From Clostridia bacterium (lineage in GTDB: Bacteria; Bacillota; Clostridia; UBA1212), in NCBI GenBank assembly GCA_017848335.1, contig JAGDAX010000052.1, positions 1 through 63,107 on the forward strand: a stretch of 63,107 nucleotides of DNA, read 5' to 3'. The notes below the pieces were generated by a model. The model had not been told where the DNA came from. It searched no databases and worked only from the letters and a program-made list of their open reading frames with translations. The translations under genes were made by a program, and so were the position numbers. Shown here piece by piece: positions 21,690 to 61,721 of this stretch (the stretch's first letter is position 1; each line of letters opens with the position of its first letter).

Positions 21690-24600
21690 ATGAAAAGGAT
21701 TATTTCATTTCTAGTCGCTGCTGTAATGGCGATTTCCGTTTTCGGAATGCTTCATATAGCAGCTCCGATGCAGGCTGCTGCAGCGGAAACTAACCTGGCG
21801 CTGGGCAAGCCGGTGACCCAGGATCTCAATGGCTGCGGCGTTATGGGCGGTCATCCCGGAGATTTGTGGTATTACGGTTATCTCACCGACGGAAAGACGT
21901 TTGAGAACGTCGGCTACGACGCAGCAGGTCAGCCGACCGATTCCAGTTACGGCTGGTACGTCACGAAAGCCGGAGCCGATCCGATGAACGCCAGCGCCAT
22001 CATTGACCTTGGCGCCGTTTATGAGATCTGCCGTGTCAAGATTTATACTGAGTACCACTTCATCGGGCTCAAATTCCCCAATACTTATGATATTTACGTT
22101 TCGGCCGACGGCACTAATTGGACCAAGGTGTTCGGCGAGGCAGGGAGAACCGGCTATATGACCCACGCCAAGGTCGCCGAGTTTGAGAAGACACCTGCCA
22201 GGTACGTTAAGACCACAATCGTTTACGGAAACGACGTGGTAACGTCCGACGAGAATCTTGACGGCATTGAAGACGACGGCGGTTATGTTCAGTATGCGGG
22301 TATCGGCGAGATTGAGGTCTATGATACATATGCCACCGGCAACATTGCTCTCAATAAGACTTCAAAAGAATCGGTCTTAGACGTATTCAATACTCCGGAT
22401 TATGCAGCATTGGGATATGCACCGAGTCATTTTGTGCTTGGATCCTCCGGCCAGTGGAATGAAGACGCCATCACAGGGCCTACGGTTCCCTTTAATTTCG
22501 GACCTTATAACATAACAGGCTGGATAGTTACCAATTTCTGGCAGAGCACGAGTATCAGACAGGATATCGACCTCCATGCCGTTTACAATATTAACCAAAT
22601 CAAGTTGGTTCCTATGGCATGGAACGGCGGCTGGATGTTCCCCAATTCCTACGATATTTTCGTTTCGGAGGACGGCGACACCTGGACGCGCGTTTATAAC
22701 GGGAATAACGAGAGTGCTCTCAACGTTCCCGCCGAAACACGCATCATCGATTTCGCTCCGATAAATGCGCGTTATATCAGCATAGCTGTCTACCACGGCA
22801 CCCAGGTCGACGGCATGCAGCACTGGACCGGTTTAGGCACAGTTGAGGTTTACGGTACTTTTGTGAGCGGATATGCCGAGAGATCCGGAGTGGCTCATTT
22901 TGACGCTAAGGATCTGACCTTCTGGAAGAGAGACAACGCTCCGACCGCTCCTTTCACCGCCGAAAGGACCGAGGACGGTATAAGAATTGAAAAACTGTCC
23001 AACAGCGATCCCGGCTGGGCAGAATTGCAGGGCGGCGATACAAACGCCTACTTCCACATTGTTCTTCCGGATACTATGAAGCCTTCCGAATATCCCTTCT
23101 ATGCTATAGAGGCAGTTGGAGACCGGGATGTGGCTCTGGCACTGTGCTATGATAACGGTTGGACTCCCTTTGTGGGAATGACGTTCGGCACCACTAAGAG
23201 TCTGCAGGTCACGCCTTATGCCGATGATATAAGCTTTGCGCCTTTCGCCTTAATGTCCGAAGGTGCTATCACGATCAACAGCATAACTTTCTACAAGACC
23301 GTTGAGGACTACCAGAGAGACATCTGGGAGCGCGGATATGCCACGTACGGTGTTAACAGCGCCAGTGTTAAGGTTGGTGACAGCCTCACGCTGACTGTCA
23401 GCGCTGTATTCCCGCCCGAAGCCACGACGCCCAGGCTGAAGGTTACCGATGCTGAAGGTGTTGAGACCGTTCTCGAACCTGTAGCTTCATCTTCCGGTGG
23501 TTTGTATTACTTCGATTACGCCAATATTTATCCCCAGAAGATCGCTGACGTTATCGCATTTGATCTTTTGGACGGCACACTCCCGATCGAAGGTATTAAT
23601 ACTATAGGCTACAGCGTTCAGAGCTATTTCGATGCTCTTTACAATTATCCTGCAGCCGCGCTTGGGTACTCGGACGGTAAGAAAGCCGCCCTGGATACAC
23701 TGCTTGCCGACCTTCTGACGTTCGGCGCAGCGTCGCAGATCTACAAATCTTACAATACTGAAAATCTTGCTGACAGTCTTGCCTGGGTAGCGGACACCAA
23801 GACTCCGGCCAATTCAAACACGCCGGTCAACGTTAAGGGCGTCACAAAGACAACTGAGGGCGACAGATTCATCGCCGCCACTCTCCTTATCGACAATGCG
23901 ATCCAGATCAAGACCAAATTCGAGGCCACCAATGCGGTTGCCGTTAAGTTTACTGCTGACGGAAGAAGCACTGTAGTTCCTGCTGCAGATTGGACTGCTG
24001 ACGGAGACAAGTTTACTGCGCTTTCCGCTCCTCTGCTTGCCAGCAAGCTGAGCAAAACCGTGACGGTTACTCTGCTTGATGCTTCGGATGAAGAACTGGC
24101 CGGTATCACCTACAGCGTTGAGTCCTATATCGCTTCGGGTGCATGCAGCGACGCAGTATTCACGGACGCTCTGCTTAATTACGGCCGTTCGGCTCGTGCT
24201 TTCATCAACGATCCCGACGGAGTTGAGCTGGTCACTATGGTTTTCCCTGAGGATAATACCGTATTTGACAAGACTTTTGCAGGCGACGTTCTTTCCCTTA
24301 ACATGAGCAACGCAAGCGCAGCTACGCTTACGGAGCTTGGTCTTAGCGGCTTGGCACGTAATGCCGTTACACAGTTCCTGCTTGAAAACTATAAGTTCAC
24401 GGTCGAGGGACAGGTCAACTATAGCAAATCTGACTCTGACAGGTCGCACACCTCTGCGTTTACATACGCATCCGGTAAGGTGATGTACAAGGATGAGCTT
24501 AGAGACGTTCTGGCAGTTGTTATCGAGGGTACCGAGTCAGAGGGCGAGTGGTATTCAAATATTGATTTCGCTCCTTCTCACAGCAACGACACGAAATATT

Positions 24601-51709: not shown

Positions 51710-53218
51710 ATGGCTTTTATTTATCCGGAACCGTCACACACGTTTAATGAGTATCTGCTTCTTCCTGGATATACCTCCAAAGAGCATATTCCTGCGAATG
51801 TCTCGCTGAAGACTCCGCTCGTGAGATTCAGAAAAGGGGAGAAGGCGCCTCTTTCGCTTAACGTGCCTATGGTTTCAGCCATTATGCAGGCTGTTTCCGA
51901 CGACAATATGGCGGTGGCGCTGGCAAAATGCGGCGGGCTTTCATTTATTTTCGGCTCACAAAGCATCGAGTCCGAGGCCGAGATGGTGCGAAAAGTCAAA
52001 AATTACAAATCCGGATTTGTGGTCAGCAAGTCCAATCTCAAGCCGGACGACACGCTGGAGGACGTTATCAGGCTCAAGAATGCCAACGGCTTCTCCACTA
52101 TCGCCATCACCGAGGACGGTACCTGCACCGGAAAGCTTCTCGGTATCGTGACAAGCCGCGACTACAGGCCCAGCCGTATGACCGGCAAGGAAAAGGTCAG
52201 AGAGTTTATGACGCCCTTTGAGAAGCTGGTCTACGCCAGGGAAGGCGTTACGCTCAAGGAGGCCAACGATATCATCTGGGACAGCAAGATCAATTCGCTG
52301 CCCATAATCGACGAGGCCGGCAACCTGAAATATTTCGTGTTCCGAAAGGATTACGACGTTCACAAGGACAACCCTGACGAGCTTCTGGACGACAACAAGC
52401 GCTACGTCGTGGGCGCGGGCATCAACAGCCGCGATTATAAGGAACGCGTGCCTGCTCTCGTTGAGGCGGGTGCGGACGTGCTTTGCATCGATTCCTCGGA
52501 GGGCTATTCCGAGTGGCAAAAGGAAACCATCGGTTGGATCCGCGAGCGCTACGGCGAGTCCGTCAAGGTGGGCGCTGGCAACGTGGTGGACGGCGAGTCC
52601 TTCAGGTATCTTGCTGACGCAGGCGCTGACTTCGTTAAGATCGGTATCGGCGGCGGTTCGATATGCATTACCCGTGAGCAAAAAGGCATAGGCCGCGGAC
52701 AGGCCACAGCCGTCATCGAGGTGGCTGCCGAGAGGGACAAATATTTCGAGGAGACAGGCATTTACGTGCCTCTCTGCGCCGACGGCGGCATAGTTTTCGA
52801 TTATCATATCACGCTTGCTCTTGCGATGGGAGCGGATTTCGTGATGCTGGGAAGGTACTTCGCGCGGTTCGACGAGAGCCCCGCCGCCAAGGTGAACATC
52901 AACGGCACCTATTACAAGGAATACTGGGGCGAGGGTTCCAACAGGGCGCGCAACTGGCAGCGTTACGACATGGGCGGCGCCTCCAAGCTTTCCTTCGAGG
53001 AGGGCGTTGACTCCTACGTACCTTACGCCGGCAAGATGAGCGACAATATTTCACTCACCCTGGGCAAGGTGCGCTCGACCATGTGCAACTGCGGCGTTCT
53101 TTCCATCGGGGATTTCCACAAGAATGCCAAGCTGACAATGGTCAGCGCAACAAGCATCGTCGAGGGCGGCGCGCACGACGTCATTCTCAAGGACAACGGC
53201 TACGCGAAGCTGAAATGA
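51710..53218 (+). CDS. guaB: IMP dehydrogenase
   Basis: [11 protein letters not shown] pair, [26 protein letters not shown] (catalytic Cys), [12 protein letters not shown]. Confidence 0.96.
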
Positions 53219-53705
53219 CGGGTGACGAAGCGTTGATACTAAGGAATGCTTAATTCTTAACTGCCTGAGCGGCAAAGCGGCTTTATGACGCGGCCCCGGC
53301 GCAGTTTGGCCGAGGTCCGGCCGGAGTCCTGCAGCGGTTCGGTCACGGCTCTTTTGCAGGCAGACAGCGGTTCTGCAGGCAGACAGCGGTTCGGCGGCGG
53401 TTTGCTTATGACTCGTACAGGGCCGGTACAAGGCTTGTTCAAGGCTTGTTCACGGCTTGCACACGATCCGGGTCAGGATCAAACGCACACAGCTTTTTCA
53501 CACTTAAAAAACATTTCAAACACAGAAACCTTAAATGAATTAAATTACGGGATGGACTGATTTTTCCGTCCCGTGTGTAGTTTTTTGCAGGTTATCAGCT
53601 AAAAACGATTGTAAAATTATATTGTAAATTTCAGGGGAAATATTTTAAATAGACTAACGGAAATTGATTATAGACACACAGAATTTCAGAAACGGAGTAA
53701 TTAGT

Positions 53706-54191
53706 ATGACAAATGACGGAGCACTCTACTATACCAGAAAAGGATATGAGGAAGAGAAAGCCAAGCTTGAATATCTTAAAGGTGAAAAGAGAGACGAGAT
53801 CATAAAGCGCATTGAGACCGCCCGCGGCTTTGGGGATCTTTCCGAAAATGCCGAATATGACGAGGCCCGCAAAGACCAGCGCGAGAATGAAGCCGAGATC
53901 CAGAGGCTTGAAGCGCGTCTTTCCAACGTTATCATATATGACGAAAACGATCTCAGCTGCGACAGTGTTCAGATCGGACATTTCGTGACAGTCGAGTGCC
54001 TTTGGAACAGCAAGGTCGTGGAATACCAGCTGGTAGGCTCCGCGGAGGCGAATCCTCTGGAGGGCAAGATATCCAACGCGGCCCCCGTCGGCATTGCGAT
54101 CTCAGGCAAAAAAGTCGGCGACGTGGTGGACGTTACGGTGCCCAACGGCATCAGGCAGTATAAGATACTGAAGATCAGGACGCCGGACTGA
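53706..54191 (+). CDS. greA: Transcription elongation factor GreA
   Basis: ARGFGDLSENAEYDEAR, LVGSAEANPLEGKISNAAPVG; probable start ATG 53706. Confidence 0.96.
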   Translation: MTNDGALYYTRKGYEEEKAKLEYLKGEKRDEIIKRIETARGFGDLSENAEYDEARKDQRENEAEIQRLEARLSNVIIYDENDLSCDSVQIGHFVTVECLWNSKVVEYQLVGSAEANPLEGKISNAAPVGIAISGKKVGDVVDVTVPNGIRQYKILKIRTPD

Positions 54192-54239
54192 TATTTTTGC
54201 AAAGCTGCTGCTTCGCAGGACTGAAGAGGCTTTGAGCCC

Positions 54240-54338
54240 AAGCCGCAGCCAAAGCGGACGCTTCAATAGCCGAAAGCCGCAGCCAAAGCGGATGCTTCAA
54301 TAGCCGAAGCCGCAGCCAAAGCGGATGCTTCAATAGCC
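54240..54338. repeat. Three tandem 33-34 bp direct repeats
   Basis: AAGCCGCAGCCAAAGCGGAYGCTTCAATAGCC(GA) starting at 54240, 54274 and 54307. Confidence 0.9.
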
Positions 54339-54555
54339 CGGGACGGCGGCTTTCTTTACGGGGAGGCGCATGCTTCGGAAGGCAGATACTTTTCCGTAAG
54401 GGAGAAGCTGTCTTTCGGAAGGCAGACACTTCCTGCGGAGGAGTAAAATTTCGGCGGAAGTAGGGCACTTGCCGCGAAAAAACGAAATAGCAGACAGCAC
54501 AGCCGCCGACGCCTTAACGGGCCGGCCGCTTACTATAAAACTAAAGGTGAATACT

Positions 54556-56562
54556 ATGGCAGACAATACCATTCAAAATCCCATAAACGACGAGGCTCAG
54601 GACGTTCAGATGTCCGAGCAGATGCAGATAAGGCGCGACAAGCTTGCGGATTTGAGAAGCCGCGGCATCGACCCTTATACGATTACCAAATATGACCGCA
54701 CGCACCTTTCTTCGGAGATATTAGACAGCTTCGAAGCGCTGGAGAACAAAACGGTCTCCGTGGCCGGACGGCTCATGTCCAAGAGGATCATGGGGAAGGC
54801 CGCTTTTGGACATATTCTCGATAAGAACGGACAGCTTCAGATATATGTTTCCAGGGACTCCCTGGGAGACGACAGCTACAGCCTTTTTAAGACATACGAT
54901 CTGGGCGACATACTGGGCATCAAGGGCTTCGTGTTTAAAACGAGGACCGGCGAGATCTCCGTGCACGCCGAGGAGGTGGTGCTGCTCACCAAGGCGCTCA
55001 ATCCGCTGCCCGAGAAGTTCCACGGGATCCAGGACACGGACACCAGGTACCGCAAGAGATACCTTGACCTTATTTCCACGCCGGAGACGCGGGAAACGTT
55101 TATCAAGCGCTCTCAGATCATCAGGGAGATCAGGAACTTTCTGGACGACAGGGGCTTTATGGAGGTCGAGACGCCTATTCTCGTGCCCAACGCGGGAGGC
55201 GCGGCTGCAAGGCCCTTCGAGACGCATTTCAACGCCCTTGACGAGGACGTGAAGCTCAGGATTTCGCTTGAGCTTTACCTCAAGAGGCTCATTGTCGGCG
55301 GGCTCGAGAAGGTTTACGAGATCGGACGCGTTTTCAGGAACGAGGGCGTGGACACGAGGCACAACCCCGAATTTACGCTGATGGAGCTTTACCAGGCATA
55401 TACCGACTACAACGGAATGATGGAGCTCACCGAATCGCTTTTCAGATACCTTGCCGACAAGGTCAACGGTACCTGCGAGGTCAAATACGGCGGGAACGTG
55501 CTGGATTTCGGAAAGCCCTTCAGGCGCCTGACAATGATCGACGCGGTCAGGGAGTATGCCGGCGTCGATTTCGATACCGTCAAGGATACCGAGGAGGCCA
55601 GGAGGCTTGCTGACGAGCACCACGTGCAGTACGAGGCGCGGCACGGCAAGGGCGACATTCTCAACCTGTTCTTTGAGGAATTCTGCGAGGACAAGCTGAT
55701 CCAGCCGACGTTTATTCTCGATCATCCTGTGGATATTTCGCCGCTCACAAAGAGAAAGCCCGACAAGCCGGACTACGTGGAGCGCTTCGAGCTCTTCATA
55801 AACGGGTGGGAAATGTGCAACGCCTACTCGGAGCTGAACGATCCCATTGACCAGCGCGAGCGCTTCGCGGCACAGGACGCGGCATTTGCGGCAGGGGACG
55901 AGGAAGCCAACCACACAGACGAGGATTTCCTTAACGCGCTCGAGATCGGTATGCCTCCCACGGGCGGCATCGGCTACGGCATCGACAGGCTTGTGATGCT
56001 GCTTACCGACAGCCCCGCTATCCGGGACGTTTTATTGTTCCCCACGATGAAGAGCATCAAGACGCCGCAGGAGCAAAACGGTGTACAGAAATCAGGCGAG
56101 ACCGCAACAGCAGAAGCGGTTCCCGAAAATGCGCCTGCAGTCAAAGTTAACGACCCGTCCATGCCGATTTTTGACGCGAATAAGCCGGATCTTGAAAGCC
56201 TTGCGATCGAGCCGCTGTTTGAGGATCTGGTCGATTTTGAGACCTTCTCCAGGAGCGATTTTCGCGCCGTCAAGGTCAAGGACTGCGTTGCTGTTCCGAA
56301 GAGCAAGAAGCTCCTTCAGTTCACGCTGGACGACGGAACAGGCACGGATCGCACGATACTCAGCGGCATTCATGCCTTTTACGAGCCGGAGCAGCTCATC
56401 GGCAAGACCTGCATCGCGATCACGAATCTGCCTCCCCGAAAGATGATGGGCATCGATTCCTGCGGCATGCTGATCAGCGCCGTTCACAAGGAAGGCGAAG
56501 AGGAAAAGCTGCACCTTCTGATGGTGGATCCGTGCATTCCGGCGGGCGCGAAGCTGTACTGA
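54556..56562 (+). CDS. lysS: Class II lysyl-tRNA synthetase with C-terminal tRNA-binding OB-fold (MetRS C-terminal/Trbp111-like)
   Basis: Start ATG 54556; LPEKFHG, RYRKRYLDL, GGAAARPF, YEIGRVFRNEG, HNPEFT, GMPPTGGIGYGIDR; tail DFRAVKV...KKLLQFTLDDG...RTILSGI...NLPPRKMMG..SCGM. Confidence 0.96.
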   Translation: MADNTIQNPINDEAQDVQMSEQMQIRRDKLADLRSRGIDPYTITKYDRTHLSSEILDSFEALENKTVSVAGRLMSKRIMGKAAFGHILDKNGQLQIYVSRDSLGDDSYSLFKTYDLGDILGIKGFVFKTRTGEISVHAEEVVLLTKALNPLPEKFHGIQDTDTRYRKRYLDLISTPETRETFIKRSQIIREIRNFLDDRGFMEVETPILVPNAGGAAARPFETHFNALDEDVKLRISLELYLKRLIVGGLEKVYEIGRVFRNEGVDTRHNPEFTLMELYQAYTDYNGMMELTESLFRYLADKVNGTCEVKYGGNVLDFGKPFRRLTMIDAVREYAGVDFDTVKDTEEARRLADEHHVQYEARHGKGDILNLFFEEFCEDKLIQPTFILDHPVDISPLTKRKPDKPDYVERFELFINGWEMCNAYSELNDPIDQRERFAAQDAAFAAGDEEANHTDEDFLNALEIGMPPTGGIGYGIDRLVMLLTDSPAIRDVLLFPTMKSIKTPQEQNGVQKSGETATAEAVPENAPAVKVNDPSMPIFDANKPDLESLAIEPLFEDLVDFETFSRSDFRAVKVKDCVAVPKSKKLLQFTLDDGTGTDRTILSGIHAFYEPEQLIGKTCIAITNLPPRKMMGIDSCGMLISAVHKEGEEEKLHLLMVDPCIPAGAKLY

Positions 56563-56683
56563 TATTTTATTGAAAGCGGGCCCTCCTGTTTGATATGGAT
56601 GGGCTCTGTTTTTTGGATCGCGGGAGCGGAGCTTCGTGCGGGCTTTGCTTTTACGGAGAGCTCTTTTTAGGCAAGCGCGGCAT

Positions 56684-56732
56684 TTGGTAAAAAAGTTTTT
56701 TTGGTAAAAAGTTTTTTTGGTAAAAGGTTTTT
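56684..56732. repeat. Three 16-17 bp AT-rich direct repeats abutting the radical SAM start codon
   Basis: TTGGTAAAAAAGTTTTT / TTGGTAAAAAGTTTTT / TTGGTAAAAGGTTTTT then ATG. Confidence 0.8.
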
Positions 56733-58229
56733 ATGAGAGAACTGTTCAAACCCGATCGGATCCTGTCGAATATTCTGCCTGAACAGAAGCTGAAGCAGGG
56801 CGCAGATTACGTCCTGTCGCAGTTTGTTCTCCCATACGAAACCGGCGGGAGGGTGCTTCTTTGCAACGTATTGACGCACCGGATCATCGAGCTGAACGAA
56901 GCCGCCGGTGAAGGGTACGGAATGCGCTTCACGGGCAGCGAGGTCGGGGACAGTGAGCTTCTGACAACGCTTGTGAAATGGTATTTCCTTGTACCGGAGG
57001 GCAAGGACGAATGCGCTTTCTACGAGGGGATTTCCCGCATGATGAGGGCGTACACCAGGCCCAAAGGCGTGAACAGCTACGTGATCATGCCGACGCTGGG
57101 GTGCAACGCCAGGTGCGTTTACTGCTACGAGGAGGGCATGGAGCAGACCTCGATGACCCCGGAGACCGTTGAGCAGACCGCGCGTTTTATTCTCGAGACC
57201 AACAGCAATAAGACTATCCGCATCAACTGGTTTGGCGGTGAGCCTCTGGCAGGCGAGCCGGCGATTGACCGGATCTGCGGGATCCTTCGCGGGGCCGGCG
57301 CAAGCTACAGGAGCAGCATGATCTCCAACGGAAGCCTGATCACCGCTGAGACCGTCAGAAAAATGAAGGACCTCTGGAACGTCAGGGACATCCAGATCTC
57401 GATGGACGGAGCCGAACAGGATTATTGCGCCCGCAAGAATTATACCTTCGGGGGCAGCTGCTACCGCCGTGTCATGAATTCCGTCAGCGCCATGAGCGAG
57501 GCCGGGATCCGGGTCGTGATCCGCTGCAACGTAGACGCGGACAACTGGACGGGGATACCGCAATTTCTGGACGATCTCAAGGGCGAGGTCGGTCACAAGG
57601 ATAACGTCGCTGTGTATTTCAGTCCGCTTAATGCGATTCGGGCGAGCGTTGACGACGTTACGATGTGGAGCAGGATCGTCGCGGCGAGGCCGATGGTTGA
57701 GGCCGCCGGCTTTAAGCCCGCCGATTATCTCGGGTTCGGCAGCAGATTCCGCATTTCCCACTGTATCGCAGACGCAGGAAGCGCAGTCGTGGCGCCGGAC
57801 GGCAGCCTTTATCTGTGCGAGCATTGTGTTCCGGAGAGCCGCTATGGGGACGTTTTCCGGGGAGTCACCGACAAGGCGGCGATGGATGCATTCGCGCGGA
57901 CGGACTTCACACGCGAGAAGTGCCGGAAATGCCCGTTCCTGCCCGATTGCACAAGCTTTTCCGCGTGCCCCGTGGAGGATTTTCATTGCAGGGAAGTCAA
58001 GGAAATGCTTGCAAAGGATATGTTGAAACTGCTGGATGAAAAGAGTTATAATATAGGTGCTCCGATGGGGGAGGCGCGTTCTGCCGGTCTTGGTGAATGC
58101 GGCGCCGAGGATTCCCACGGGAGCGGCTTCGGGGACAGCTTAAAGGATCGATTCGAAAATGCCCCCGGGGATGGCTTCGATAATGGCCCGGAGGACGGAT
58201 TCGGGGCGAGAGCAGGATCTTTGTGCTGA
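56733..58229 (+). CDS. Radical SAM/SPASM-domain peptide maturase
   Basis: CNARCVYC (C124/C128/C131), WFGGEPL, QISMDG; SPASM C-x12-G-x4-C ... CxxC-x5-C-x5-C-x6-C; N-terminal LLCNVLTHRIIEL RRE-like extension. Confidence 0.92.
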   Translation: MRELFKPDRILSNILPEQKLKQGADYVLSQFVLPYETGGRVLLCNVLTHRIIELNEAAGEGYGMRFTGSEVGDSELLTTLVKWYFLVPEGKDECAFYEGISRMMRAYTRPKGVNSYVIMPTLGCNARCVYCYEEGMEQTSMTPETVEQTARFILETNSNKTIRINWFGGEPLAGEPAIDRICGILRGAGASYRSSMISNGSLITAETVRKMKDLWNVRDIQISMDGAEQDYCARKNYTFGGSCYRRVMNSVSAMSEAGIRVVIRCNVDADNWTGIPQFLDDLKGEVGHKDNVAVYFSPLNAIRASVDDVTMWSRIVAARPMVEAAGFKPADYLGFGSRFRISHCIADAGSAVVAPDGSLYLCEHCVPESRYGDVFRGVTDKAAMDAFARTDFTREKCRKCPFLPDCTSFSACPVEDFHCREVKEMLAKDMLKLLDEKSYNIGAPMGEARSAGLGECGAEDSHGSGFGDSLKDRFENAPGDGFDNGPEDGFGARAGSLC

Positions 58230-58244
58230 GAAAGGCTGCTTGAC

Positions 58245-58505
58245 ATGAAGCTGAGAGATCAATTTATCACACAGGATTTAGATGATATACAATATTTGAT
58301 TCCCGTTGGCGGTGAAGCCTTCAGCGGTATTGTTCGCAGCAATAAAACCGCTGCTTTCATTGTCGAGCGCCTTAAGAGCGAAACTACCGAGGAGCTGATA
58401 GTTGACGCCCTTTTTGAAAGATTCGACGCGCCAAGGGAAGAAATTGCAAAAGACGTCAGGGACATTCTCGACATTTTGCGCGGGATCAACGCCCTTGAGG
58501 AATAG
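58245..58505 (+). CDS. Stand-alone PqqD-family RiPP recognition element (RRE)
   Basis: 86 aa; YLIPVG...NKTAAFIVERL...IVDALFERFDA..EEIAKDVRDILDIL winged-helix pattern. Confidence 0.85.
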   Translation: MKLRDQFITQDLDDIQYLIPVGGEAFSGIVRSNKTAAFIVERLKSETTEELIVDALFERFDAPREEIAKDVRDILDILRGINALEE

Positions 58506-58637
58506 ATTTCCGTGAGGATTCGCAGGAATTCGCAGGAAGGTGCGAAGAACTGTTGCGGGCTTTTTGATTTCAATAACATTTATATCATGTTTCTGCTGTA
58601 AAAGATGACGTTATGATACCGGAAGGGATGGGAGTCA

Positions 58638-58838
58638 ATGTCAAAGGGAAAATATGAAAAACCGGTGATGGATGTCGTGAGTTTTAAGACGGATATAATC
58701 ACAACGTCAGGTTGTCCGCCGGTCGGAATCTGCATAGACGTATCTCCGTGCAGCTCATACGGCACGTGTTCGCCTGATATTATTATCATTCCTTGCGATT
58801 CCGGGTGTAATGATAACTTGCATAATCATACGCTTTGA
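58638..58838 (+). CDS. Putative RiPP precursor peptide (YxxP leader, six-Cys core)
   Basis: GGAG RBS; leader KYEKPVMDVVSFKTDIITTS; core GCPPVGICIDVSPCSSYGTCSPDIIIIPCDSGC... Confidence 0.8.
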   Translation: MSKGKYEKPVMDVVSFKTDIITTSGCPPVGICIDVSPCSSYGTCSPDIIIIPCDSGCNDNLHNHTL

Positions 58839-59108
58839 GGGGTGCGAGTTATGTGTCCCCTGTCTGGCGAAAAGGAGTCCGCGTCTGCATTTTAAGACAC
58901 GAACGGTTCACGCGAAAGCGTGCTCAGTGAGAGGCTTAATATGCTGCGCGGTGGCCAGAGACCACCGCGCGTTCTGCCCTCAAGGCTCATAATTCGATGC
59001 TCATGGCTCGATTCCTTATATTCCGCAAATCAATTTTTACATTCCGATTCTTACAACAGTCATTGCGTTGCTTTCATAAATCATAGCTTATAATTTTAGA
59101 CCGTTATT

Positions 59109-61721
59109 ATGCTTTCACCACAAGACGATTCACGCAAAAAGCTTTTTTCGTTTTTGTTCGCTCTTGCCGCGATTTTGGCGGTTCTTGTGTGTTCTTTTAT
59201 CGTTCGCGGGATCGCATACCGCGTGCCGGCTGCGGACGCTCAGGAGAAGCAATACTTTTTGGACGACGACGGCGAGCCCTACCTTACGGAGATGGACTCC
59301 TATTTCTTTTTCCGCAAGGCGGGCGAAATGGCTGAAGAGGGGAAGATCAACCTTTACAATTACAGGTCGAGCGATGCGCTTATCGGGCAAAGAGTGTACG
59401 CGAATGAGGACGCAGGCGGGACGCCGCTCGGCCTTTCGGTGCTGTGTTACCTGATCTGGTTTTGCTTTCTGCGCGTGTTCGGAGTGAGCCTTTATCAGAC
59501 TGCGGTCTGGATGGGGCCCGTATTTGGAAGCCTTGCCGCGGTGCCTGCGTTTCTTTACGTCAAACGAAGAGCCGGGCTGGCGGGCGGTATTGTCGCGGGA
59601 ATTCTTGCCGGGTGCGCGATTCCGTTCGTGATCCACACTCACGCCGGCTTTTTTGACACCGACATGGTGCTTGCGATCCTGCCGCTGACGTTCCTGCTTT
59701 GCCAGATCAGAAGCATGCAGGAAAGCAAGCTCGCAAAGCAGATCGTGTTTGCGCTTCTTTCCGCGGCGGCGCTGGTGGTCATGTCATATTTTTGGGTGGC
59801 CTTCAACGCGTATTGCGCCCTGTCGCTTATTTGCACGGTAATATCCGTCGTGCTGATATCGGCGGTGCCCTCAAGGTTTATGAGCGGTCAGCCGTGGCGC
59901 AGGAAGTGGCAAATGATCCGCGGAGGTCTGCTTGCCCAGGGCTTCACGTACATTCTGCTGTTTGTGACCGGAGGGGTCGCCGCGCTGAAGAGAGTACTGT
60001 CGGTCCTTGATCTGCTCAGGTCCTCGTCGGGTGCCGGCGCCGCCGCGCTTCCCGGAGCATACGATTTTGTGGGCGAAATGAGGCGGATCCGCAAGCTTCC
60101 CGGGCTTAGTCCCGTGGAGCTCGTGAAGGCAAATACGGGCTCGGTCATGGGAATGCTTGGCGGGCTCATTCCTTGCCTGCTCGCGGCGGCGGCTATCCCT
60201 CTTGCGATACTGATTTTGTTTTTAAAGGCGAAGCGGAAGGGCGTTGACGCGTCCGGGGGAGAAGGGAACGGTGTCGCAGAGCTTATGGTTGACGCCGGCT
60301 TCCTGCTGCCCTGGCTTGTTCTCTCGCTCTATCTCGCATTTTCGAGCGTGAGATATTGTGAGATCGCCGTGCTTCCGGTTTGCCTGCTTTGCGGTACCGC
60401 CGTTGGCTGCGTGTTTTCCGCTGCCGGGAAGGTGGGAAGAGCAGGTGCGCCTTTCGGAAGCTACGGTAATGCCTCCGAAGCTTCCGGCGTTCTTAGTGCA
60501 GACTCCGGGAACTCTCGCGGGAAATCAAACGCGCATCGTGGTATATCCGCGATTCTGCGCAGGATATCCGGCTTTTTCCGCGAAAGATCCGATATTGTTA
60601 TTCGGGCGGCGGGTATTTTGCTTGCTGCTGCGGCTGTTATTCCTGTGATCATAGGCGCGATAACGTACTCCTCGACCGTGAAGTCTTCCGTGACCGACAC
60701 CAAAAGCCTCGCAATGCAGTACGTGCGCGAGAATACTTCCCGGGATGCCTCTGTCGCAGGCTGGTGGGACGACGGTTATTTCACCGAATATGCGTCAGGC
60801 AGGAGGACTCTTACGGACGGCGGCAGCAGCAGCGGCCTGCTGGACTGGCTTACCGCTAAGGCGCTTCTTACGGACGATTTGAAGCTGTCCTCCAATATTT
60901 TCCGCATGCTCAACGAGAGCGGCGGCGATGCCCTGGAATTGATCATCGGGCAGGGAGTTGACGGCAGCGAGGCTGCAGAGCTTCTCATGGAGCTTTTGGC
61001 GGCGGATCGCTTAACCGCGGCTGTAATTCTGGACGGGAAGGGGCTCGATAAGAGCATTCTCGACAAGACGCACCCTCTCGAAAGCAACGAGATCGTGCTG
61101 ACGCTGAGCACGGACCTTCTCGGTAAAATGAGGGCCCTGAATTATTATGCCTTTTGGAATCCGGCGAAAGGACGCTCGGAGATGAACGCGGGCATAACGG
61201 TTTCGGACGGGTCGAAGGTTTTGAGCGAAGAGGGCAGAGCAGACGTTACGATGTTCCGGTCTGACGCGGTTGTTCATGTGACCGTGAATGCTGACGGCAG
61301 CGTTTCGGCGAATTACTCCGACGCCACGGGGAAGGTTTATGAGCTCGGGCGCCTCTGCGTATGGAAGGACGGTGTGCTCGTCAGCGACGAGTGCATTGAA
61401 AGCCGTTTGACCGGCGATGGCGGTGAAGTGAGGTCATACCCGACCGGCTGCGTGCTTCTGATCGAGGGCGACCGTATTTGCGGCTTGCTGTGTCCCCGCG
61501 AGGTTTGCGGCAGTGTGCTGGTAAGGTGCCTTGTATGCGAGGATGAATCCGTCGGGACGCTTGAGCTTCTGGGCACGTGGTACGGCGAAACCGAAGCGGA
61601 GCCCTGTGCCGCCCAAAGAAGGCTGGGCGTTTACTCGGAAAGCACGTGGGTGACGCAGGTTTGGAGACTGCGGGGTGAAGTGTTTCGGAGCTCTGCACTT
61701 GGCCACCGCGCAGCATTTTGA
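59109..61721 (+). CDS. STT3/AglB/PglB-family oligosaccharyltransferase-like protein
   Basis: Multi-TM N-terminal half; EMDSY (aa 61-65), HAGFFDTD (DxD, aa 183-185), WWDDG (aa 552-556), RRTLTDGG; soluble C-terminal domain. Confidence 0.85.
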   Translation: MLSPQDDSRKKLFSFLFALAAILAVLVCSFIVRGIAYRVPAADAQEKQYFLDDDGEPYLTEMDSYFFFRKAGEMAEEGKINLYNYRSSDALIGQRVYANEDAGGTPLGLSVLCYLIWFCFLRVFGVSLYQTAVWMGPVFGSLAAVPAFLYVKRRAGLAGGIVAGILAGCAIPFVIHTHAGFFDTDMVLAILPLTFLLCQIRSMQESKLAKQIVFALLSAAALVVMSYFWVAFNAYCALSLICTVISVVLISAVPSRFMSGQPWRRKWQMIRGGLLAQGFTYILLFVTGGVAALKRVLSVLDLLRSSSGAGAAALPGAYDFVGEMRRIRKLPGLSPVELVKANTGSVMGMLGGLIPCLLAAAAIPLAILILFLKAKRKGVDASGGEGNGVAELMVDAGFLLPWLVLSLYLAFSSVRYCEIAVLPVCLLCGTAVGCVFSAAGKVGRAGAPFGSYGNASEASGVLSADSGNSRGKSNAHRGISAILRRISGFFRERSDIVIRAAGILLAAAAVIPVIIGAITYSSTVKSSVTDTKSLAMQYVRENTSRDASVAGWWDDGYFTEYASGRRTLTDGGSSSGLLDWLTAKALLTDDLKLSSNIFRMLNESGGDALELIIGQGVDGSEAAELLMELLAADRLTAAVILDGKGLDKSILDKTHPLESNEIVLTLSTDLLGKMRALNYYAFWNPAKGRSEMNAGITVSDGSKVLSEEGRADVTMFRSDAVVHVTVNADGSVSANYSDATGKVYELGRLCVWKDGVLVSDECIESRLTGDGGEVRSYPTGCVLLIEGDRICGLLCPREVCGSVLVRCLVCEDESVGTLELLGTWYGETEAEPCAAQRRLGVYSESTWVTQVWRLRGEVFRSSALGHRAAF

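Follow-up and report, generated by a model that had tools for sequence, protein, structure and literature searches.

A candidate rSAM/SPASM-PqqD-precursor-STT3 module for a doubly modified ribosomal peptide in a Clostridia bacterium

The window considered here, namely, a 63,107-nucleotide stretch of DNA taken as a whole (contig JAGDAX010000052.1 of Clostridia bacterium assembly GCA_017848335.1), encodes a 66-residue peptide containing six Cys. The gene is preceded by open reading frames (ORFs) for a predicted radical S-adenosylmethionine (rSAM) enzyme and a PqqD-family protein, and is followed by an ORF for a predicted STT3-family oligosaccharyltransferase (OST). This arrangement raises the question of whether all four genes serve the biosynthesis of one ribosomally made and post-translationally modified peptide (RiPP) and, if so, which modifications that peptide would bear. 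An initial reading of the DNA, made without database searches and referred to here as the sequence-only reading, had described an rSAM/SPASM RiPP cluster comprising the first three genes. The frame of that description ended just before the STT3 gene, and both the link to STT3 and the C-terminal Asn-His-Thr (NHT) sequon of the peptide were missed. From the comparative analyses described below, it can be proposed with moderate confidence that the window contains a four-gene biosynthetic module, in the order rSAM/SPASM, PqqD, precursor and STT3, whose product would be a ribosomal peptide bearing two kinds of modification.

All four genes lie on the forward strand. The rSAM/SPASM peptide maturase is encoded by an intact ORF of 498 residues (56733-58229), while the PqqD-family protein, a stand-alone RiPP recognition element (RRE) of 86 residues (58245-58505), starts 15 nt past the rSAM stop codon. 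The precursor ORF (58638-58838; 66 residues), with the sequence MSKGKYEKPVMDVVSFKTDIITTSGCPPVGICIDVSPCSSYGTCSPDIIIIPCDSGCNDNLHNHTL, comes next and is separated by a spacer of 270 nt from the gene encoding the PglB-like STT3-family OST (59109-61721; 870 residues). Each of the three ORFs that had been noted earlier was found intact where it had been placed. Within the precursor, a leader (residues 1-24, MSKGKYEKPVMDVVSFKTDIITTS; 58638-58709) that includes a YxxP motif and a DVIxTS box precedes the core (residues 25-66 and the stop codon; 58710-58838), where the six Cys, at positions 26, 32, 38, 44, 53 and 57, show the x5, x5, x5, x8 and x3 spacing originally described and contribute to CPPVGIC and PCDSGC modules. 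The sequon, N63-H64-T65, as read from its codons (58824-58832), is found at the C-terminus of the peptide. A purine-rich ribosome-binding region lies upstream of the precursor ATG.

A word-indexed homologue search with the 66-residue precursor returned no match, and the family to which it belongs surfaced only via a hidden Markov model (HMM) of the leader, built from the first small-ORF matches neighboring rSAM orthologues. In total, 79 genomic loci were fetched for relatives of the rSAM enzyme, 76 of them with an rSAM gene and with 72 genomes behind them, nearly all metagenome-assembled genomes (MAGs) of rumen Clostridia, together with two cultured strains that carry the base family without STT3, Sarcina sp. 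DSM 11001 and Ruminococcus flavefaciens YL228. In about 75 of the 79 loci, the leader HMM detected small ORFs neighboring rSAM orthologues, approximately 100 in all, and it scored the window precursor at 50.4 bits (E 1.5e-13). The leader of the family reads M(E/K)KY(E)KPxMEVxELxxDVIxTS, after which comes a hypervariable core. When 30 precursors were aligned, Y6 and P9 were the sole invariant columns, with M or L following the YxxP motif, such that the leader motif recognized in the window is real. A profile of these 30 precursors, run against 1.84 billion proteins, matched 1481 representatives at E<=1e-3, whereas neither the window precursor nor any of 14 STT3-linked precursors had a real match when scanned against Pfam and NCBIfam. 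Judged by its sequence, the 66-residue ORF is thus a genuine precursor, belonging to a very large and unnamed leader family.

The cores of this family contain 0-10 Cys, and the regular spacing from which evenly arranged rings had been proposed does not hold as a rule for the family; what recurs in the clade of the window is solely a CxPVGxC (C-x5-C) module. Orthologous cores, namely, those of L090, L091, P0211 and P0212 (L and P numbers denote loci or precursors in this study), keep CPPV(G/A)xC, PCDS and (H/S)NHT. The position of the precursor gene also differs, being mostly upstream of the rSAM gene in loci lacking STT3 but after PqqD and directly before STT3 in STT3-bearing loci, as in the window. 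Tandem arrays of two to four rSAM paralogues were seen in L068 (3088-9405) and L074 (3367-6320), where every paralogue has a precursor of its own ahead of it, with a core of the TDTPEPTPC type.

The rSAM protein of the window matched PF04055 (Radical_SAM) with 60.8 bits (cut-off, 29.5) and contains the CX3CX2C cluster motif (C124NARC128VYC131). The Pfam SPASM HMM gave a weak match of 17.1 bits, under the cut-off of 21.5; the SPASM Cys set is complete (C344x12Gx4C362, C397x2C400x5C406x5C412 and C419) and is kept in 79 of 80 homologues, with the last spacing being x5, as opposed to x3 in the reference pattern CX9-15GX4C ... CX2CX5CX3C ... C. More than 690 homologues of approximately 440 residues, sharing about 50-57% identity, were found, all labelled only 'radical SAM protein'. 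The top NCBIfam matches, namely, TIGR04463 (the best, at 138.5 bits and 2.6e-40, with an equivalog cut-off of 525), Clo7bot, geopeptide, CefB and PapB, all represent maturases of Cys-rich peptides. As all of the NCBIfam scores are far under the respective cut-offs, the enzyme belongs to no named maturase family. No Pfam or NCBIfam model names either the precursor or the rSAM protein, and the description of the cluster as uncharacterized holds.

An AlphaFold (AF2) model of the rSAM protein (mean confidence score, pLDDT, 75) found its best solved fold over the full length in CteB (5why/5wgg; E 8e-16 to 6e-15; TM 0.51-0.61), with further matches to TigE, anSME, SuiB, ChlB and SkfB, and with EpeE being also significant. 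The N-terminal domain (residues 1-110) is CteB-like, comprising four strands and three helices. Profile-profile comparison of this domain with the PqqD family revealed no similarity (probability 8%), and it is accordingly on the CteB-like fold that its labelling as an RRE rests. The protein is, as predicted from these comparisons, an intact CteB-like SPASM maturase. The separate PqqD protein matched PF05402 with 49.8 bits (cut-off, 23.4), in agreement with the stand-alone RRE described earlier, for which leader binding is predicted; its best NCBIfam match is the lasso-peptide PqqD chaperone (7.5e-8). A PqqD homologue was detected in 57 of the 76 loci with rSAM and, where placed, directly follows the rSAM gene.

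At its C-terminus, the window rSAM protein carries a low-complexity tail of about 60 residues (439-498; 58047-58226), rich in Gly, Asp and Phe and modeled with a pLDDT below 35, that ends just before a terminal Cys. The tail is missing from the homologues of approximately 440 residues. A terminal Cys is found within the last four residues of 60 of 80 family members, typically as PVC or PIC.

The distribution of Cys among the precursors was next related to that of the rSAM gene. Cys occurs downstream of the leader in 94 of 99 rSAM-adjacent precursors. In L099, where ScmC, PqqD, peptide and STT3 genes are found without rSAM, the core is Cys-free. The genome containing the window offers the same picture, in that its sole Cys-bearing leader peptide adjoins its sole rSAM of the family, while five leader-like ORFs away from rSAM are all Cys-free. 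Two of these belong to a second, rSAM-less cluster outside the window (contig C2, 23205-26082, minus strand), which encodes two Cys-free FxxP-leader peptides, a ScmC/HprK-like P-loop protein (247 residues), a PqqD protein (100 residues) and an S24/S26-like peptidase (271 residues; 23205-24020). This peptidase is the sole such homologue in the genome and the only possible in-genome leader peptidase for the window peptide. Three orphan leader-like ORFs, on contigs C27 (23512-23712), C123 (12453-12593) and C23 (38577-38867), are weak matches (E 0.26-1.1) with Cys-free, Asp/Trp-rich cores and no maturase nearby. Across the precursors compared, the presence of Cys in the predicted core tracks the presence of rSAM. 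This co-occurrence supports Cys-directed chemistry by the enzyme, which, by analogy to its relatives, probably acts on Cys, most simply by forming thioethers. There is high confidence that an rSAM RiPP cluster directed at Cys is present here and functional.

Turning to the fourth gene of the module, the encoded STT3 matched PF02516 with 126.1 bits (cut-off, 24.5) and PF21436, the STT3-PglB core domain, with 31.5 bits (cut-off, 23). Its GFFDTDM and WWDDGY/DGG motifs align with GYYDTDM and WWDYGY/DGG of Campylobacter lari PglB. The catalytic set comprises the acidic motifs E61/D63 and D183-T-D185 in the first two external loops, E323 in the fifth external loop and W552-W553-D554-x-G556, while D52, E61, D63, D183, D185, E323, W552-W553-D554 and D570-G571-G572 are invariant in 30 STT3 homologues. 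The AF2 model (pLDDT 87) gave PglB (6gxc/5ogl; E 5e-20) as the best fold match. Homologues form a discrete subfamily scoring at least 413 bits, after which scores drop to about 200 bits, including archaeal (methanogen) STT3. Gene 59109-61721 is thus predicted to encode an intact PglB-like N-oligosaccharyltransferase. A longer STT3 paralogue (974-1036 residues, 31-36% identical to that of the window) was seen in L084 and in L085/L086, with no RiPP genes nearby; in two of the genomes, this represents a second STT3.

Among the 72 genomes holding rSAM loci, STT3 is found in eight, and is adjacent to the cluster in seven of these (for L003, on an adjoining contig end). With STT3 homologues as the starting point, the order rSAM-PqqD-precursor-STT3 was again found in L090, L091, L093, L094, L095, L108, L110 and L117, while L092 presents a split variant, precursor-GT1-STT3, where GT denotes a glycosyltransferase. 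Overall, precursor and STT3 are adjacent in 18 distinct loci with differing flanks, including one lacking rSAM (L099) and one with rSAM 2.4 kb away (L061/L088). The predicted four-gene order is thus conserved across unrelated genomic contexts. In a tree of rSAM proteins, seven STT3-linked enzymes and that of L004 form one supported clade; in L004, precursor, STT3 and ATP-binding cassette (ABC) genes have been lost together. In 67 more distant STT3 loci (21-38% identity), no leader-like ORF was found apart from one weak chance match. Frequent extras in related loci are an ABC exporter, NTP_transf_5, a ScmC/HprK-like protein and an S24/S26-like peptidase. The earlier statement that no protease or exporter is adjacent therefore stands for the window itself but does not extend to its relatives.

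Beside the precursor and STT3 genes of L092 (788-8373), genes for an HldE-like kinase/adenylyltransferase, a GT9 heptosyltransferase, a haloacid dehalogenase-type (HAD) phosphatase, an epimerase and the GT1 protein were seen. These ADP-heptose-type genes hint at the glycan used at that locus.

The association of STT3 with the peptide was also apparent in the cores themselves. N-x-S/T is present in the core of all 18 distinct STT3-adjacent precursors, as compared to 9.2 expected from composition-preserving shuffles, with the probability of all 18 carrying the sequon under the shuffles being 9e-7. When counted by precursor, the sequon is found in 15 of 17 STT3-linked sequences versus 12 of 92 elsewhere (Fisher p=1.8e-9); when counted by locus, the numbers are 15 of 15 versus 8 of 66 (p=6e-11). 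As the loci are not phylogenetically independent, these p-values are optimistic. The four orthologous cores named above retain the NHT of the window C-terminally, as (H/S)NHT, while other positions vary. Cores of only 28 residues contain four sequons in L095 and three in L099. An acidic residue at position -2 was seen in just one of 30 sequons of STT3-adjacent precursors. In the sequences compared, the occurrence of N-x-S/T in the predicted core tracks the presence of STT3.

With rSAM tracking Cys and STT3 tracking sequons, the product of the window module is best read as a thioether-crosslinked, N-glycosylated RiPP. Glycosylation of the peptide by STT3 at the conserved Asn-x-Thr, as suggested by these sequence comparisons, is considered somewhat likelier than its absence. 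A similar if slightly lower degree of confidence, just above even, attaches to the broader proposal that these loci encode the first RiPPs to be Asn-glycosylated by a PglB/STT3-type OST, en bloc from a lipid-linked donor outside the cell, and that most of these peptides would also be rSAM-crosslinked.

The following sequence of events can be envisaged. PqqD would bind the leader via YxxP(x)M/L and hand the core to rSAM, which, in the cytoplasm, would form intramolecular thioether crosslinks of the sacti- or ranthi-type from all six Cys or a part of them. Export of the peptide would come next. An ABC exporter that could serve in this step is encoded in many related loci; as the window contains no exporter gene, export would in this case occur in trans. 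At the outer face of the membrane, STT3 would glycosylate Asn63 of the C-terminal NHT, with an undecaprenyl-pyrophosphate-linked glycan as the donor. The leader would be cut off by an S24/S26-like peptidase, for which the rSAM-less cluster on contig C2 holds the only homologue in the genome. Export, glycosylation and leader removal may also follow one another in a different order.

Several observations weigh against so direct a connection between STT3 and the peptide. Members of the same STT3 subfamily, approximately ten in number (L096-L098, L100, L101, L112, L114, L116, L118 and L119), have no precursor nearby, meaning that the subfamily is not exclusively dedicated to RiPPs. In the window, no exporter, leader peptidase or glycan-synthesis gene adjoins the cluster, and the window rSAM branches beside, rather than within, the main STT3-linked clade. 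Sequons moreover occur in 12 precursors from genomes without STT3, and the statistical support for the sequon is overstated by the relatedness of the loci, as mentioned above. Finally, OSTs act on the outer face of the membrane, such that a small soluble peptide could acquire its glycan only in conjunction with export, during or just after this step. In a rival reading, rSAM, PqqD and the precursor would form a trio making a thioether RiPP, with STT3 being an unrelated general protein or cell-surface N-glycosyltransferase residing on the same mobile island. That possibility draws on the STT3s found in loci without any RiPP gene, the lack of exporter and glycan genes beside the window cluster and the 12 of 92 sequon-bearing precursors from STT3-less loci. 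It is nonetheless thought unlikely, given how precursor and STT3 remain neighbors in 18 distinct loci, despite differing flanks and even where rSAM is absent or distant, how the sequon is found in every one of those precursors rather than in the half or so expected, how NHT is retained in orthologous cores while other residues vary, and how the cores of L095 and L099 consist of little but sequons.

The nature of the rSAM reaction is likewise subject to another interpretation. The case for thioethers relies on analogy, with the enzyme reaching the cut-off of no named thioether family. Instead, rSAM could install a different modification, such as epimerization, a C-C or C-O crosslink or an anSME-like oxidation of Cys, with the Cys forming disulfides or binding metal. 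The significant fold matches to anSME, SuiB, ChlB and EpeE, the five rSAM-adjacent precursors without Cys and the many Trp/Asp-rich cores would all fit with such activity. Still, Cys-rich peptides are the substrates of every maturase among the top sequence matches, the best fold match is CteB and the presence of Cys follows that of rSAM, making this alternative improbable, more so than an unrelated STT3. Least probable of all, indeed hardly to be credited, is the idea of a non-functional, remnant cluster or of a 66-residue ORF that is not translated. This notion could appeal to the window having no adjacent ScmC-like, peptidase, exporter or NTP_transf_5 gene, unlike many relatives; it is met by four intact ORFs with every catalytic motif present, by the ribosome-binding region before the precursor ATG and by the recurrence in L091 of the same four-gene order, at the same chromosomal site and with a conserved core. 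The reading favored here thus remains that of a thioether-crosslinked peptide N-glycosylated by the OST encoded next to it.

Comparison with known systems places this proposed peptide among, but apart from, several RiPP classes. CteB, which makes thermocellin, and PapB, which makes freyrasin, resemble the window enzyme in presenting CX3CX2C and the full SPASM Cys set, and in the leader-dependent action on a Cys-bearing core that is predicted for the window enzyme, with CteB being the best solved-structure match over the entire length, N-terminal domain included. The window system differs from both in that a separate PqqD gene exists in addition to the N-terminal domain, in its leader family and in the coupling to STT3. 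Assignment as a PapB-type ranthipeptide (freyrasin) was rejected, as NF047865 scored 86.3 bits against a cut-off of 340 and the core contains no CX3D repeat. SCIFF was similarly rejected, with the maturase model TIGR03974 scoring 47.4 bits against a cut-off of 425 and the precursor matching no NCBIfam model. In both instances, the distinction drawn in the sequence-only reading was upheld. Membership in the TIGR04463 family was rejected on the basis of the score given above, as was membership in the Clo7bot and CefB families (106/600 and 96/600 bits, respectively, far under the cut-offs). TIGR04463, Clo7bot, CefB and SCIFF resemble the present system in involving rSAM/SPASM maturases of small Cys-rich Clostridial peptides.

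In lasso peptide systems, a YxxP-containing leader is bound by the PqqD-like B1 protein. The invariant Tyr and Pro of YxxP followed by M/L, the lasso chaperone as best match of the window PqqD and the HprK/ScmC-like and NTP_transf_5 genes of related loci, as occur in Firmicute lasso clusters, are all shared features, whereas tailoring in the window would rely on rSAM and STT3. A lasso identity was rejected, since neither the stretch of the window from LysS to the glutathione peroxidase gene nor the recurrent neighbor families showed an ORF for an Asn-synthetase-like cyclase or a transglutaminase-like (B2) leader protease, although no dedicated family search was made. The SynChlorMet (Scm) cassette consists of ScmC (HprK-like), ScmD (PqqD) and ScmE/F (rSAM/SPASM). 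Related loci similarly contain a ScmC-like P-loop protein upstream of rSAM and PqqD (TIGR04249, 2.9e-4; PF27840); these matches are, however, weak, and the window cluster is without a ScmC-like gene, the only one in the genome being that on contig C2.

In terms of glycosylation, the window enzyme resembles Campylobacter PglB as the top fold match and in its DTD and WWDxGY/DGG motifs and Pfam STT3 domains. By contrast, the PglB equivalog model NF050801 scored only 62.6 bits against a cut-off of 1300, and the sequons, with the one exception in 30, are without the acidic residue at -2. Membership in the Campylobacter-type PglB family was therefore rejected. The host is, moreover, of the Clostridia type, and the RiPP proposed as the substrate has its gene immediately upstream. 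Glycocins, such as sublancin and glycocin F, are likewise sugar-bearing ribosomal peptides. In these, soluble GT2-type enzymes carry out S- or O-glycosylation in the cytoplasm, with nucleotide sugars as donors, whereas the window enzyme is a membrane OST, proposed to act outside the cell and to transfer to Asn from a lipid-linked donor. As no GT2 gene adjoins the window cluster, identity as a glycocin was rejected. In L093, a GT2 gene is located upstream, yet STT3 is present as well.

Examination of the surroundings of the module revealed that L091 carries it at the same chromosomal site as does the window, following IMPDH-GreA-LysS. When window positions 51710-61721 were compared with positions 1-8460 of L091, IMPDH, GreA and LysS were found to be 95, 89 and 84% identical, respectively, as opposed to only 47-62% for the four cluster proteins. 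The cluster either diverges much faster than its surroundings or was replaced by an allele. The combination of conserved flanks and diverged cluster proteins fits a fast-evolving accessory locus. Neither rSAM nor STT3 was found in 60 relatives, including seven genomes of the same genus. When an empty site was sought in the same-genus genomes, LysS was found there followed by different genes, such that no clean insertion boundary could be drawn. Five loci (L008, L011, L036, L059 and L063) derive from MAGs labelled Anaerolineaceae, Bacteroidales or Planctomycetes, with rSAMs that nest among Clostridia sequences; this mismatch points to mis-binned contigs or recent transfer.

A tandem repeat of 3.1 copies of the 16-nt unit TTTGGTAAAAAGTTTT (56683-56732; unstranded) abuts the rSAM start codon (Tandem Repeats Finder: period 16, 94% matches, score 84) and may have a regulatory role in the cluster, for instance as an operator or promoter. 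Scans of the region for promoters and terminators yielded results no better than those obtained with shuffled sequence. Folding of the 270-nt spacer between precursor and STT3 was also no better than that of shuffled versions (z = -0.16). A local GC hairpin without a U-tail, GCGCGGUGG-CCAGAGA-CCACCGCGC, lies within this spacer at approximately 58946-58970.

To our knowledge, bacterial N-OSTs have been established mainly in Campylobacterota and in some Deltaproteobacteria, while the glycosylated RiPPs of which we are aware rely on soluble S- or O-glycosyltransferases. In the literature searched, no description of a RiPP paired with STT3-type N-glycosylation was found. Were the present reading correct, RiPP biosynthesis would be tied to STT3-type N-glycosylation, with the precursor gene lying immediately upstream of its own OST. 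The enzyme would be the first N-OST with a dedicated substrate, and Clostridia would gain their first functional N-OST system. Being small, acting on a short peptide that is defined genetically and accepting a relaxed N-x-S/T sequon, such an OST could, moreover, serve as a tool for glycoengineering and in studies of OST specificity. The precursors would constitute a very large RiPP family of about 1500 representatives, found mostly in rumen Clostridia, sharing a lasso-like YxxP leader and unnamed in Pfam and NCBIfam. Within this family, the exchanges made in nature would serve as predictions, with a Cys-containing core expected where rSAM is present, a Cys-free core where rSAM is absent and a sequon where STT3 is present.

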